Shown: one piece after another, positions 26,121 to 49,904 of the stretch
Layout: the number at the start of each line of letters is the position of its first letter
Position numbering within the stretch: position 1 is the stretch's first letter
Origin: a phage
Length of the DNA: 50,709 nucleotides
Direction: 5' to 3' (one strand)
Sequence record: NC_105617.1
Program-made: the position numbers and the translations under genes
Notes under the pieces: model-generated
The model's database searches: none
What the model saw: only the letters and a program-made list of their open reading frames with translations
Told to the model about the DNA's origin: nothing

Positions 26121-26143
26121 TAAGTAAATAGCACGAATTGCTA
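26121..26143 (-). promoter_or_regulatory. Reverse-oriented TAGCAC box upstream of tail fiber gene
   Basis: Minus strand reads ttagcaattcgtgctatttact directly before RBS GGAG of the fiber gene. Confidence 0.4.
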
Positions 26144-33262: not shown

Positions 33263-33439
33263 ATGAAACGAGTTAAGTGCATCCGAAATGATTCCAAAAC
33301 GCTTCCATTCCGCGTAAATCAGATCTATAGTGTTGGTTATGATTTCGGAGGTGGATTGTTTGAGATTTACGATGGTAGAGGTTCAACAATACAAGCTCCT
33401 CTGAACGGTCATTACCTAGAATTTATTGAGCTAGATTAA
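33263..33439 (+). CDS. Small hypothetical protein
   Basis: 58-aa ORF below track cutoff with RBS AGAGGG, own promoter cassette upstream and hairpin terminator downstream. Confidence 0.35.
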   Translation: MKRVKCIRNDSKTLPFRVNQIYSVGYDFGGGLFEIYDGRGSTIQAPLNGHYLEFIELD

Positions 33440-33557: not shown

Positions 33558-33773
33558 ATGAAAGAATTTTTAACAGCGGCTACGTCAAGCACGGGAGGCG
33601 CTTCATTGGTAGGGGCGGCGACAGGGCAACTTTATATTGCTGGCGCTACATTCATTTGCTTTCTGCTTTTTGGTGCATGGGGCGCATACTGGAAGTATCG
33701 TGATAGTAAGGCAATTCAGGAAGCGTTAAACGATGGCGATCTAAATAAGGCGCTTAAGATCAGGGGGAGATAA
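33558..33773 (+). CDS. Holin (putative pinholin)
   Basis: 71 aa with Gly/Ala-rich weak TM followed by hydrophobic TM ([31 protein letters not shown]), charged C-terminus; TAATG overlap with endolysin. Confidence 0.5.
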
Positions 33774-37136: not shown

Positions 37137-37562
37137 TTATAAGTATTTGGCCTCAAAGGTTGTGCCGTCTGCGATACTAAAACCAACCTCTTCGCGAAAC
37201 AAGGTCCATCGACAACCATCTTCATCAAAGATGTAACCAGCTACGCCACCGAGAGCGCGACCGCTTTCAACCTGGTAACGCTTGCCAACTTTGAATGATT
37301 TTTTCATTGGGTTGCGATGGTCAAGCCCGGTGCACTTGAGCGTCTTTGTTTTCAACTCAGTGAACTTCGCGAAGAAGATTTCATCAGATCCGTGAATCTG
37401 TAATTCATCATGCTTTTCAAGTTTTAAATACTTGCCGCATTTTAACTTGATTTCACGAGTGCCATCATAGCGCTCTCTACCTTTGTACAGGTTGTTAACT
37501 TCAAATCCTGTGATTTTGTCTGCTGAAGTGCATTTAAGTTTGATGGATTTCATTGCGTTCAC
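37137..37562 (-). CDS. Hypothetical protein
   Basis: 141-aa ORF behind cassette with CCAATCAGGAG leader. Confidence 0.45.
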   Translation of the reverse strand: MNAMKSIKLKCTSADKITGFEVNNLYKGRERYDGTREIKLKCGKYLKLEKHDELQIHGSDEIFFAKFTELKTKTLKCTGLDHRNPMKKSFKVGKRYQVESGRALGGVAGYIFDEDGCRWTLFREEVGFSIADGTTFEAKYL

Positions 37563-37589: not shown

Positions 37590-37632
37590 ACTTTATCAAA
37601 TGACCTTACGGCAATATTAACAAATCGTGCTA
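37590..37632 (-). promoter_or_regulatory. Box-hairpin-(-10) cassette (minus)
   Basis: Minus strand tagcacgatttgttaat + 22 nt + TAAAGT; near-duplicate of plus cassette 45457-45505. Confidence 0.5.
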
Positions 37633-42449: not shown

Positions 42450-42644
42450 ATGGAAACGCAAATTGACGTAGTGGTTGTTCAGCGTGACTCCACCCATGAA
42501 AAGGGGCTATTCAAGAAAGGAACTGAAATCACGATAGACCTTGAGGATATGGTTGCATATCACTCGGGTCTTACCTGGAACGTGGTGCGCGTAGGCAGCG
42601 ACTACAAACTCAAAGGCTTTAACACTTACTTTGCGGAGGTTTAA
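42450..42644 (+). CDS. Hypothetical protein
   Basis: 64 aa behind cassette 42376-42424. Confidence 0.45.
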   Translation: METQIDVVVVQRDSTHEKGLFKKGTEITIDLEDMVAYHSGLTWNVVRVGSDYKLKGFNTYFAEV

Positions 42645-44243: not shown

Positions 44244-44732
44244 ATGAAAATTAAATTACTGTGCACTGGCGGTTACAAAGGCTTTACTCGCGACCTGGAA
44301 TCAGACCCGATTATCGTTGACGCTGTGAAGTGCGATGATAGCACGGGCGGCTACCGCGTCAAGGTTGACGACCTGGTAAAAGCTGGCGTGTACGATCTGG
44401 ATTACGGCCTATCGGTTAGTCCAGTATTTGGCCCGGCTGACTTCAACGAAAATGACGGAACGATGTTCTTTTTTGAATGGGAAGTCCAGGCAAACATCAA
44501 GCCGCGCAAGGTTCGACTTCTCAACAATGGCGGGTATCCTATGCGCCCTGGTTATGAGAATCGCACGTTCCCGGTTATTGTTGACTTTGAGGAAATTACC
44601 AGCACCCTGGCTTACGTTGGAAATGAACAACTCAATGCTGTAGGTTTTTGGGGTGGGATGAATAAAGAGTCTCTTTGCTTCTTCCATCGCGACACCGAAC
44701 CGTTCTCTATTGAGTGCGAGTTAGTTTACTGA
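44244..44732 (+). CDS. Hypothetical protein
   Basis: 162 aa behind cassette 44170-44218. Confidence 0.5.
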   Translation: MKIKLLCTGGYKGFTRDLESDPIIVDAVKCDDSTGGYRVKVDDLVKAGVYDLDYGLSVSPVFGPADFNENDGTMFFFEWEVQANIKPRKVRLLNNGGYPMRPGYENRTFPVIVDFEEITSTLAYVGNEQLNAVGFWGGMNKESLCFFHRDTEPFSIECELVY

Positions 44733-45310: not shown

Positions 45311-45459
45311 TGGCTTCATGGGTTTTGATTATCTTAATGAGTACCGGGCCAGATCACGTATACATGGAAAGCCAACAATCATGCAACAAGGCTCGGGAGG
45401 TGATTTCAGAGAACAGGCCGTTCGGATACGAAGTAAAAACGATGTGCGTTAAACGATAG
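45310..45459 (+). CDS. Small hypothetical protein (micro-ORF)
   Basis: 49 aa with hydrophobic N-terminus (MASWVLIILMSTG); TAATG overlap upstream; stop TAG is the TAG of a TAGCAC box. Confidence 0.3.
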   Translation: MASWVLIILMSTGPDHVYMESQQSCNKAREVISENRPFGYEVKTMCVKR

Positions 45460-45505
45460 CACGAATTGATAAACCTTCCGCAAGGCCATTTGATATAGTG
45501 GCCTT
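45457..45505 (+). promoter_or_regulatory. Box-hairpin-(-10) cassette
   Basis: TAG stop of micro-ORF = box start; ttgata + 22 nt + TGaTATAGT; hairpin aaggcca/tggcctt. Confidence 0.55.
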
Positions 45506-45539: not shown

Positions 45540-45746
45540 ATGGCTACACGACTAACTCAGTGGCAGATTTACGACAAGGCCTCACGCCTACGTGAATCAC
45601 TTCGCGGACTGACGCAGAATGACAGAATGGAGATTATCGGGCACGCATTGCACGAACTCACGCCGCCGGACGTAACCTATCATTCATGCGGCAATAAATT
45701 CTGGAACGTGACATTCGAGGTAAAGAAAGATGAGCAAAACTCATAA
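45540..45746 (+). CDS. Hypothetical protein
   Basis: 68 aa from ATG 45540 behind CCAATCAGAGGA leader. Confidence 0.45.
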   Translation: MATRLTQWQIYDKASRLRESLRGLTQNDRMEIIGHALHELTPPDVTYHSCGNKFWNVTFEVKKDEQNS

Positions 45747-46017
45747 GTTAAAAATCGCCCCGATACATTTCATTGGTGTAATGAACGGAACCAAAACGGC
45801 AGAGTTCCGCATCAATGACCGCAACTTCCAGGTTGGTGATATCCTTGAGCTACGCGAGTTCGATCGTGACGAGTTTACCGGGTGGGAAGTTCACGCAAGG
45901 GTATCCGATGTTACCGATGTGACGCCATACATTAATCGCGGGTATGACGATCAAGGATGCGACTTCACGCAATACGTGATGTTATCAATCAAACCTTACA
46001 GGAAGGTTAGACCATGA
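45730..46017 (+). CDS. ASCH/PUA-like domain protein (putative)
   Basis: 95 aa; N-terminal pattern KTHKLKIAPIHFIGVMNGTKTAEFRINDRNFQVGDIL resembles ASCH-type domains; weak. Confidence 0.35.
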   Translation: MSKTHKLKIAPIHFIGVMNGTKTAEFRINDRNFQVGDILELREFDRDEFTGWEVHARVSDVTDVTPYINRGYDDQGCDFTQYVMLSIKPYRKVRP

Positions 46018-46670
46018 AATTTGAATGCGTATCAAGTAGCGGATCGGGCTTTAAGTGGGGAAAAATCTACGAAGGCGCTCGAGTCAATGACGACAGCTTC
46101 GTTGTCGTGGATGAGAACGGCAGTAACGTTAACATCACCCGTCGTAACGAGTACCAAGAAATTTTCCTGCCGTATGGCGGTAGTTCAAAATATATCTTCC
46201 ATCGAATCGTGGATGGTGTTAAATTTAGAGACGTAATCGAAGCAATCAACCAACTGCATAATAAAGAGGTAAAATTTATGAAATTTGAATGTATCAGCGA
46301 TAACACCAAAAAATTTACTGTTGGAAAAATCTACGACGTTCCTACTGAGCACGCAAAGCACACTGTAGCGCTTACTGACGACACTGGCCGTCACCGCATC
46401 GCTACCGTAACGCATAATGGCGAAGGTCTGCGATGGAATAGCGGCGGCACTAAGTTTGCAACGTTCGGCAAGAAGAAGCAGAAATTTAATACCAGTAGAA
46501 TCAAGGGCGGTTTCCGCATCGAACAGGGTAAGATTCAAAGCGTTAAGCCAATCGAAGTTGATGGTAAAGTCAAGCCTAAGCTGACCAACAAGGACATTGA
46601 TAATCTGGCGAACCTGGCTATGGCTACCGTGCTTCTTATTTCTCTTATCGTGCTGTTTTTCGTAGTTTAA
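46014..46670 (+). CDS. Tail-anchored membrane protein with tandemly duplicated N-terminal domain
   Basis: Two about 88-aa repeats each starting MKFEC(V/I)S...GKIY(E/D), second with its own SD AAGAGG; C-terminal TM LANLAMATVLLISLIVLFFVV. Confidence 0.5.
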   Translation: MKFECVSSSGSGFKWGKIYEGARVNDDSFVVVDENGSNVNITRRNEYQEIFLPYGGSSKYIFHRIVDGVKFRDVIEAINQLHNKEVKFMKFECISDNTKKFTVGKIYDVPTEHAKHTVALTDDTGRHRIATVTHNGEGLRWNSGGTKFATFGKKKQKFNTSRIKGGFRIEQGKIQSVKPIEVDGKVKPKLTNKDIDNLANLAMATVLLISLIVLFFVV

Positions 46671-46677
46671 CTTAAAG

Positions 46678-46709
46678 TGGGAATCGTTCCTGAGCGGTTC
46701 CCTATTTTT
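46678..46709 (+). terminator. Terminator-like hairpin
   Basis: gggaatcg/cggttccc stem (one G-T pair) followed by T-rich tract. Confidence 0.35.
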
Positions 46710-46720
46710 ATGAGGTGAAT

Positions 46721-46843
46721 ATGAATAGCTTTATGCCTGACTTTAAGAACTGGAAAAACGAACCTCCATCATTTCAGGAGTTGCTATTCTGCCTCCTGGT
46801 CCTGACATTATCTCTTAAGGGTGTTTTATGGCTACTATCATGA
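46721..46843 (+). CDS. Small hypothetical protein (micro-ORF)
   Basis: 40-aa ORF with RBS GAGGTG and hydrophobic C-terminal half; overlaps next gene start. Confidence 0.25.
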   Translation: MNSFMPDFKNWKNEPPSFQELLFCLLVLTLSLKGVLWLLS

Positions 46844-47046
46844 CAGCAGAAGATGCAGCACGTGAAGCAGTGGAAGGAATGCGACCAAATACCTCCAGAA
46901 TCGCACACTACTACAAATTTGACGTATCGGCAGTGCAATTGGTCCATGAAATTTTAAGGCTCCCACAAGTCGATTCAGCGCGTGTGGTGGCGTGCTTAAA
47001 AAATTATTTTTGCATCACTATTAAAACGAATAGCACGAATTGCTAA
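46828..47046 (+). CDS. Hypothetical protein
   Basis: 72 aa; last five codons (NSTNC-stop) are encoded by a TAGCAC box. Confidence 0.45.
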   Translation: MATIMTAEDAAREAVEGMRPNTSRIAHYYKFDVSAVQLVHEILRLPQVDSARVVACLKNYFCITIKTNSTNC

Positions 47047-47079
47047 AACCTATCAAGGGGAATGCGCTATGATTCCCCT
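47031..47079 (+). promoter_or_regulatory. Box-hairpin-(-10) cassette
   Basis: Box encodes last codons NSTNC-TAA of upstream gene; ttgcta + 22 nt + TATGAT; hairpin ggggaat/attcccc. Confidence 0.5.
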
Positions 47080-47103
47080 ACACCAACGAACGAGGGAATA
47101 CTC

Positions 47104-49471: not shown

Positions 49472-49701
49472 TGTTCGGTTTAAGTGAAGCGGAATGGAAC
49501 GTAGTAAAGCGCGCAGCGAAGGAATTGAATAAATTCGTTAGCGGAATGAAGAAAGAAGATCGCAAAAACGAAAAGATTATGATTGACGTAATTTCGACTC
49601 ACCATAAAAAGGTCGAACTACTCATTGACCGCTACAAATTTGTCTGGACTGCCGGGTATATTGCAGGGCGCGTAGGAAACAAAGAAGGGGATTACGAATA
49701 A
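49471..49701 (+). CDS. Hypothetical protein
   Basis: 76 aa; TAATG overlap. Confidence 0.45.
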   Translation: MFGLSEAEWNVVKRAAKELNKFVSGMKKEDRKNEKIMIDVISTHHKKVELLIDRYKFVWTAGYIAGRVGNKEGDYE

Positions 49702-49904
49702 TGGCTAATTTACCGAAGAAAGGCGATCAGGTTCGATGTGTCACCTCACGCAATGGTAATGCTTTCTCGGCGGGGTGCTTGTACGACGTAGAAAAAGTCA
49801 GTAAATCAAAGAGGCTTGTATTCGTGTACGGTGATGATGGAAACCTGCATGAGCTTGATTACCCGCAGGATGTAACTAATGGTCAATTCGAAATTAATGA
49901 TTGA
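49701..49904 (+). CDS. Hypothetical protein
   Basis: 67 aa; TAATG overlap. Confidence 0.45.
   Translation: MANLPKKGDQVRCVTSRNGNAFSAGCLYDVEKVSKSKRLVFVYGDDGNLHELDYPQDVTNGQFEIND

Follow-up and report, generated by a model that had tools for sequence, protein, structure and literature searches.

Two long-diverged beta-barrel modules in a tail-anchored early protein of a T1-like phage, with a putative ancestral start site retained between them

The DNA analysed in this study is a stretch of 50,709 nucleotides from a phage (NC_105617.1), the whole of which is referred to here as the window. At 46014-46670 on the forward strand it carries an ORF of 218 aa, pointed out by an earlier note and found here in full, which starts with ATG and encodes a pair of beta-barrel modules joined by a basic linker to a membrane anchor at the C-terminus. 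The product belongs to phrog_10580 (profile match at E = 3.7e-113, residues 1-217 against profile positions 1-211 of 212). The window is a T1-like genome (Tunavirus, Drexlerviridae), and the region around the ORF is 91-97% identical to many Escherichia/Shigella phages of this genus, including Sfin-1, DELF2, ADB-2 and SH6. The intact ORF (212-220 aa) was found in more than 40 protein clusters and in approximately 53 phage records covering at least 80% of the query, and a search of 5.8 billion proteins returned 43 homologous clusters, all from T1-like phages and mostly two-module proteins of 212-220 aa, with T1 CPTT1_010 included.

The ORF is the last gene of a short early operon, all features of which are on the forward strand. 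The intergenic motif TAGCACGAATTGATAAA, which the phage repeats, has its closest upstream copy at 45457-45473; this copy, with a hairpin after it, likely marks the start of a transcription unit that comprises a 68-aa gene, a DUF3850/ASCH-like gene and the ORF. There are 16 copies of this motif in the window against 0.28 expected, and the repeated element has also been described in phage TLS (PMC11447400). The DUF3850/ASCH-like gene (45730-46017; 95 aa; Pfam DUF3850 at 2.8e-16) runs into the ORF, its TGA stop overlapping the ATG start in the tetranucleotide ATGA, and the two genes may be translationally coupled through this overlap. A Shine-Dalgarno (SD)-like GGAAGGT, read from the sequence and conserved in relatives, is located at 46001-46007, 6 nt before the first ATG. 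A terminator-like hairpin followed by a T-run (46679-46712) stands directly 3' of the ORF and closes the operon; a rho-independent terminator is annotated at the equivalent place in T1 and Chapo.

Within the ORF, codons 1-57 (46014-46184) encode module 1, a beta-barrel. It is paralogous to module 2, from which it has diverged, and varies more. Codons 58-88 (46185-46277; SSKYIFHRIVDGVKFRDVIEAINQLHNKEVKF) form a leader-like segment that has no counterpart in module 2 and carries an internal SD, AAGAGGT, at 46264-46270. Seven nucleotides further on is an internal in-frame ATG (46278-46280; Met89), orthologous to the start codon of T1 ORF68, which opens the second beta-barrel, module 2 (codons 89-154; 46278-46475), nearly invariant at the protein level. 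A Lys/Arg-rich linker follows at 46476-46604 and is predicted to be disordered (pLDDT <50 at residues 153-190). This linker occurs in two allelic forms among the relatives in our alignment A3 and is also a peak of diversity; many megablast matches lack approximately 20% of the query because the linker region differs. The C-terminal transmembrane anchor proposed by the earlier note was confirmed: the segment LANLAMATVLLISLIVLFFVV at 46605-46667, followed only by the stop codon, places hydrophobic residues 198-218 at the extreme C-terminus and is modelled as a helix at residues 192-217. The N-terminus, MKFECVSSSGSG, is polar and has no signal sequence, and the protein is thus of the tail-anchored type. 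Since a Lys/Arg-rich segment precedes the helix (positive-inside rule) and a signal peptide is absent, the product is predicted to be an inner-membrane protein of N-in orientation with both barrels facing the cytoplasm.

The model of the full-length protein was mediocre (pLDDT 63.5) and consisted of two beta domains, a weak helix at residues 71-82, the disordered stretch at 153-190 and the terminal helix. Module 1 formed six strands in this model (pLDDT 72-83) and codons 58-88 were modelled at low confidence (pLDDT 48-58). Module 2 modelled alone reached a pLDDT of 91.5 and a pTM of 0.76, its six strands forming a barrel in which the beta1-beta2 loop is long. Both modules have the fold of a small SH3-like beta-barrel, and fold and topology agree with those of the solved structure of Gp54 of Bas11 (PDB 9axb). 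Gp54 is a non-essential protein of 66 aa that directly activates the defence protein CapRel-SJ46, and its topology was termed very rare by its authors (PMC11578894). The likeness is structural: Gp54 of Bas11 and the modules share 11% identity and no detectable sequence relationship, and Gp54 is a free-standing, single-domain, soluble protein, unlike the anchored two-barrel ORF. The window encodes a Gp54 homologue of its own at 42450-42644, to which hhalign assigned the modules a probability of 0.1%; sequence homology of the modules to this homologue or to the window's other small barrels was not significant. Searching the PDB by Foldseek with the full-length model gave nothing significant, with weak matches to tandem Tudor, KOW and SH3-like domains only, and a profile search of PDB sequences gave nothing relevant and did not find 9axb. 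The BFVD search returned uncharacterised small phage proteins only, and PADLOC one spurious weak match.

A second point of comparison is DUF7244, a member of the SH3 clan that occurs as a stand-alone SH3 protein beside the lysis genes of T1-like phages (PMC13164509). The modules resemble DUF7244 and DUF6501 in the hallmark [K]xC[IV]...F.xGKxY...DDxG and in the small SH3-like barrel. Against DUF7244 the whole protein scored 16.6 bits, with a cut-off of 27, and each module alone gave no match even at E values up to 1. A profile of both modules found P0048, P0049 and P0071 at E = 1e-12 to 1e-3; these proteins match DUF6501 at 1e-10, 2e-20 and 6e-7, and P0049 scores 30.1 bits against DUF7244, above the cut-off of 27, the modules' own link to this family being transitive only. 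Tandem arrays of 2-9 copies are common in the remote homologues, and repetition is therefore typical of this barrel domain. The modules described here differ from DUF7244 in belonging to an early operon rather than a lysis cassette and in being fused to a membrane anchor.

Selection was analysed in 18 distinct two-module genes. Module 1 had a dN/dS ratio of 0.16-0.19, module 2 one of 0.04-0.06, and codons 58-88 between them one of 0.18-0.27; dS was 0.45-0.84 in both modules. These values imply an old arrangement in which module 1 is translated and under constraint, and in which module 2 is constrained most strongly. The stretch of module 1 also shows high nucleotide diversity. In close relatives the dS of codons 58-88 was 0.11 against 0.45-0.55 in the flanks, i.e. 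4-5 times lower, and this synonymous dip was weaker in distant comparisons. Nucleotide diversity is equally low in the neighbouring 3' half of the ASCH-like gene and at 46750-47090; because these nearby stretches match it, the dip ahead of the internal ATG was not counted as evidence of an overlapping signal.

Comparison with related phages, which the earlier note had proposed, brought out both one- and two-module versions of the gene. The best known of the former is T1 ORF68 (CPTT1_010, AAP49932; 124 aa), the orthologue of residues 89-218, which starts at the Met89 equivalent. By tblastn it is 58% identical over query residues 73-204, the barrel itself being nearly identical. It has in common with the ORF an SD (GGAGGT, on which its ribosome-binding site is annotated), the ATGAAATTCGAATG start, the basic linker, the C-terminal anchor and a terminator after the gene. 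In linker and anchor it represents the other allelic type, and it is annotated as 'single transmembrane domain predicted N-in and C-out'. T1 differs in having no module 1, ASCH-like gene or 68-aa gene, so that ORF68 stands directly behind the repeated promoter-associated motif. The three were lost by a deletion between two GAAGCA..CAACCAA microhomologies, and at the junction the leader of the 68-aa gene is joined to the last ~25 nt before the module-2 ATG. The T1 upstream region was also considered as a decayed 3' end of module 1; the alignment resolved it mostly into the leader of the 68-aa gene and the ~25-nt junction end.

Outside this pair, IME347 (Badaguanvirus) has a 126-aa single-module version behind a leader of its own, and P0050 and P0054, recovered by a profile search of 1.8 billion representatives, each combine a single barrel, a basic linker and a C-terminal transmembrane segment at less than 50% identity to the query. 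As single-barrel tail-anchored proteins thus occur in T1, in IME347 and in distant phages, theirs is the wider and presumably older architecture.

In other relatives module 1 is missing or broken by lesions of different kinds. Chapo and the relatives L029 and L030 are without codons 1-57, the stop of the ASCH-like gene being followed directly by the sequence of codons 58-88. In L028 codon 16 has changed from GGA to TGA. L027 has lost one nucleotide from the A-run at codon 58, a deletion present on six contigs that results in separate ORFs of 73 and 124 aa, and the N-terminus of P0030 is frameshifted. With the T1 deletion, at least five independent lesions were counted, and despite these lesions of module 1 the SD, the ATG and module 2 are all intact. 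To judge from these cases, the recurring event in Tunavirus is secondary loss or inactivation of module 1. Module 2 is sometimes broken as well: a 14-nt deletion lies within it in ADB-2, and therefore either the whole gene is dispensable or this record is erroneous. We take it that the gene is dispensable, at least in culture.

These variants bear directly on the internal start. The earlier note had assigned the second repeat an SD of its own, and this holds, the AAGAGGT motif standing at a functional spacing of 7 nt from the in-frame ATG (46278). In T1, Chapo, L027, L028 and L029/L030 this SD-ATG pair is the only usable start. The internal SD corresponds to the annotated ribosome-binding site (GGAGGT) of T1 ORF68; the 18 nt that precede the module-2 ATG in L026-L030 are identical to those of the window; and GAGG is kept in all two-module sequences examined except L024, which carries AAAGATGT. 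Met89 is invariant in alignment A3, from which P0029 (record ISF001), with Leu at this position and many other apparent errors, had been left out. Of the 306 internal in-frame ATGs in the long ORFs of this genome, 10 (3.3%) are preceded at 4-10 nt by an SD-like 5-mer, so that the motif by itself is within chance and its meaning comes from the comparative evidence. No stable RNA structure was detected around the internal start (z = +0.49). The sequence was also inspected for an internal sigma-70 promoter for module 2 and gave no convincing match. The literature on expression of T1-like phages (ribosome profiling, transcriptome and proteome studies) yielded nothing usable. The AAGAGGT sequence encodes Lys-Glu-Val, and may have been retained merely on that account.

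On the comparative evidence, the SD (46264) and the ATG (46278) are best read as the gene's original start site, retained rather than newly acquired. This site probably also yields, in the phage of the window, a 130-aa product equivalent to T1 ORF68; we consider such a product likely because the ancestral site suffices in several relatives and the RNA is unstructured. In the relatives without an intact module 1, whose sequence here is identical or nearly so, the internal site must be the one that is used, and L024 represents a two-module form without the SD.

Production of a long and a short protein by in-frame internal initiation is familiar from T7 gene 4A/4B and from S107/S105 and C/Nu3 of lambda. 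The ORF resembles these pairs in having an in-frame SD and ATG inside a reading frame, with the short form corresponding to the C-terminal part of the long one. It differs in that the two predicted forms would be set apart by a whole domain, and in that the internal site would be an ancestral start that a later N-terminal extension reads through.

The principal alternative is that the 218-aa protein is the sole product. The internal SD and ATG would then be an inert relic of the ancestral start that is kept for the coding of Lys-Glu-Val...Met and for the position of Met89, which opens strand 1 of barrel 2. The purifying selection on module 1 and on codons 58-88 indicates that the long product is seen by selection; L024 has two modules and yet has lost the SD; internal SD-like motifs before ATGs are not rare; and low diversity at the junction is not unique in the region. 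Each of these points agrees with a single, full-length product. However, the same sequence is the one start left in at least five lineages with module 1 deleted or broken, and is thus a competent initiation region; the region is, moreover, unstructured, and the residue equivalent to Met89 varies (V, Y, M) in the internal repeats of remote homologues, whereas it is invariant in A3. We regard exclusive production of the full-length protein as unlikely, though it deserves to be kept in mind, and retain as the preferred reading that the ancestral start is still in use.

As to how the two modules came to share one gene, their likeness has to be considered first. The 14-mer ATGAAATTTGAATG is present exactly at 46014 and 46278, and the 14-mer GGAAAAATCTACGA exactly at 46059 and 46323, in both cases 264 nt apart and in phase; the period of 264 nt and the identical starts reported earlier are thus correct. 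By hhalign, module 1 and module 2 match with 95% probability and 29% identity over 56 columns, and the homology stops at the same Gly-Gly in both. BLASTP aligned the first 20 residues only (55% identity), and no pairwise similarity was found from residue 21 to the end of the modules (z = -0.3). Local alignment of the two 264-nt units at the DNA level likewise recovered only ~20 nt at the starts (z = 6). On this evidence the repeated part is a domain of approximately 57 aa rather than an 88-aa unit; of the two repeats of about 88 aa that had been proposed, the in-frame domain duplication stands and the length does not.

The exact identity of the 14-mers is in part a peculiarity of this genome. 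Where module 1 reads TTT and GGA, module 2 of most relatives reads TTC and GGC, i.e. the two copies of each 14-mer are one synonymous base apart. Since the 14-mers are mostly not identical in relatives, their identity here is attributable to a conserved peptide motif (MKFEC...GKIY) together with codon coincidence. Gene conversion between the module starts was considered as well and ruled out: from one relative to the next, the TTT/TTC state changes independently of the GGA/GGC state. P0050, a homologue from an unrelated phage, is about as similar to module 1 as module 2 is. By these measures the duplication is old and its copies are long diverged.

Codons 58-88 offer a clue to the route. In Chapo and L029/L030 the same ~90 nt lie between the stop of the ASCH-like gene and the module-2 ATG, where they contain no ATG-initiated frame. 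In the divergent two-module phages L024 and L025, a degenerate copy of the leader with indels is found between the ASCH-like gene and module 1 (z = 12.6 and 10.0 respectively), which gives the order leader, barrel, leader, barrel, tail. The repeat unit is exactly 88 codons, and this layout together with the 88-codon unit fits an old tandem duplication of the leader and the first 57 codons. The junction leader was also compared with the standard leaders that follow the repeated motif; similarity to that of the 68-aa gene was weak (z = 4.1) and to that of pnk absent, and this comparison was not relied upon.

The two barrels could instead have been brought together by fusion of neighbouring paralogous genes, through a lost stop codon and read-through of the leader, or by recombination of a foreign paralogue at the shared ATGAAATTYGAATG. 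Such a history would be consistent with the equal distance of module 1 from P0050 and from module 2, and possible donors exist in the window's other barrels with the same motif (33263-33439, 49701-49904 and 37137-37562); the leader copy of L024 and L025, in addition, resembles the window-type leader more closely than it does the leader at their own junction, as recombination would have it. We nevertheless consider fusion or acquisition the less likely route. The homologue searches found no stand-alone gene of the module-1 type with its own stop outside the frameshift variants, and the unit of exactly 88 codons with homology ending at the same Gly-Gly speaks against this route, as does the leader-domain-leader-domain pattern of L024 and L025. 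The earlier note's reading of a recent tandem duplication still being resolved, for which the two exact 14-mers 264 nt apart in phase and the coexistence of one- and two-module versions in close relatives might speak, is very improbable in view of an identity of only 29% over 56 columns and of pairwise similarity that ends at residue 20, the lack of conservation of the exact 14-mers in relatives, the conservation of the two-module form at a dS of ~0.5-0.8 with both modules under purifying selection, and the nature of the Tunavirus single-module forms as secondary deletions that retain the leader or the ASCH junction.

The preferred account, old tandem duplication with a retained start, can then be put together as follows. 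The second barrel, with the basic linker and the anchor, would be the older gene. A first barrel would have been added upstream of it long ago, most likely by tandem duplication of a 264-nt unit that consisted of the 5' leader and 57 codons, whereby the old leader with its SD came to be read in frame as codons 58-88. The 218-aa two-barrel form would start at 46014, coupled to the ASCH-like gene via ATGA, and a 130-aa one-barrel form, the equivalent of T1 ORF68, would arise from the retained start at 46278. The barrels would bind a cytoplasmic ligand and keep it at the membrane early in infection, and the role may be an accessory one in host interaction. For this explanation as a whole, namely two old barrels and a retained, still used ancestral start in a tail-anchored accessory protein, we put the probability at roughly 0.6.

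More specific statements on function are weaker. That the long and the short form, each carrying its barrel or barrels on a long basic tether, both bind a cytoplasmic partner, and have a putative early accessory role in host interaction, anti-defence or exclusion, is a tentative suggestion at best. By analogy with holin and antiholin, which arise from a dual start, the two forms might also constitute a built-in long/short pair that shares an anchor and acts mutually, e.g. with the long form, which has the additional and faster-evolving barrel, masking or redirecting the short one, the conserved core, but we consider this improbable. In that event codons 58-88, a former leader, would double as protein linker and translation initiation region, and the variability of module 1, like the rare Gp54-type fold, would be in keeping with an arms race against host defence sensors.

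In general terms, this otherwise unannotated early gene is an accessory gene of an ordinary sort whose evolutionary history is clear, and does not constitute a new class of system; SH3-like barrels in tandem are of a known kind, and so is an N-terminal extension in which the old start site survives. It provides a worked example of a phage gene that gains an N-terminal domain while the original ribosome-binding site is kept inside the new ORF, and shows that such N-terminal extensions are lost again through several different lesions. T1 ORF68 and its relatives can be regarded as membrane-tethered versions of the rare six-stranded barrel of Bas11 Gp54, a trigger of a host defence protein.

In a search confined to the window, the module profile, built from both SH3-like beta-barrel modules of the 218-aa ORF (46014-46670, +), matched a 141-aa ORF on the opposite strand (37137-37562, -) with an E value of 5e-5. 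This ORF carries two tandem copies of the barrel motif, IKLKCTS...F.V..LY and KTLKCTG...FKVGKRYQV...DEDG, and is thereby a second tandem-barrel protein of the genome; its match to DUF7244, a small phage beta-barrel domain of the SH3 clan, is weak. The KxC...Y motif of the modules also occurs in a 58-aa ORF (MKRVKCIRNDSKTLPFRVNQIYSV...; 33263-33439, +) that has a weak hhalign match to them (3.5%) and sits directly upstream of a small ORF (33558-33773, +) which, judged by sequence alone, looks like a holin. In T1-like phages a stand-alone DUF7244 SH3 protein adjoins the lysis genes (PMC13164509), and the 58-aa ORF is probably this protein. A further small protein with the barrel motif, of 67 aa (..VRCVTSRNGNAFSAGCLYDVEKV...VYGDDGNLHEL; 49701-49904, +), gave weak profile matches only (E = 0.013 with the module profile; hhalign 14%). 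Internal duplication also seems to have occurred in the 162-aa ORF at 44244-44732 (+; phrog_9595), to which phrog_13367, a profile of 74 positions, aligns in two stretches and whose halves have similar starts (KIKLLCTGGY.. and RKVRLLNNGGY..).

Two sharply distinct allelic forms of the linker-anchor part of the 218-aa ORF (46465-46660) occur among relatives that are otherwise close. Module 2 just upstream is nearly invariant. The window has the KKQKFNTSRIKGGFRIEQ...LISLIVLFFVV type, and the related phages SH6 and T1 have the RKRTFRVNGKINTSK...LVASISLMFIM type. In phage ADB-2 (locus L021, JX912252) a 14-nt deletion, which may be genuine or a sequencing error, shifts the reading frame of module 2 after 45 codons, and in DELF2 (locus L009) the start codon of module 1 is GTG rather than ATG. 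Downstream of the 218-aa ORF, the sequence is highly conserved among relatives. Two small overlapping ORFs lie there, both 3' of the terminator-like hairpin that follows the 218-aa ORF. The first (46715-46843, +) encodes 42 aa, including a hydrophobic segment, and its T1 counterpart, ORF67, is annotated as single-TM; the second (46828-47046, +) encodes a 72-aa protein of phrog_11330.

With up to 3 mismatches allowed, the motif TAGCACGAATTGCTAAA was found in 16 copies in the window, against 0.28 expected. The copies are located at 26129, 27670, 31203, 31535, 43115, 44731, 45457, 47031, 47551, 48846 and 50677 on the + strand and at 37616, 38135, 39251, 39666 and 41190 on the - strand, in every case in the orientation of the genes. 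Approximately 10 nt downstream of the copies is a hairpin with a stem that varies from copy to copy and a loop containing a -10-like hexamer (TATAGT, TAGAAT), and next comes a leader that contains CAACCAATCAGAGGAAT. As a 21-nt repeat, the same element has also been described in phage TLS (PMC11447400).

A 64-aa ORF of the window (METQIDVVVVQRDSTHEKGLFKKGTEITIDLEDMVAYHSGLTWNVVRVG...; 42450-42644, +) is clearly homologous to Gp54 from phage Bas11 (E = 3.7e-13 against 9axb), a protein of solved structure that is the trigger of the CapRel-SJ46 defence protein.
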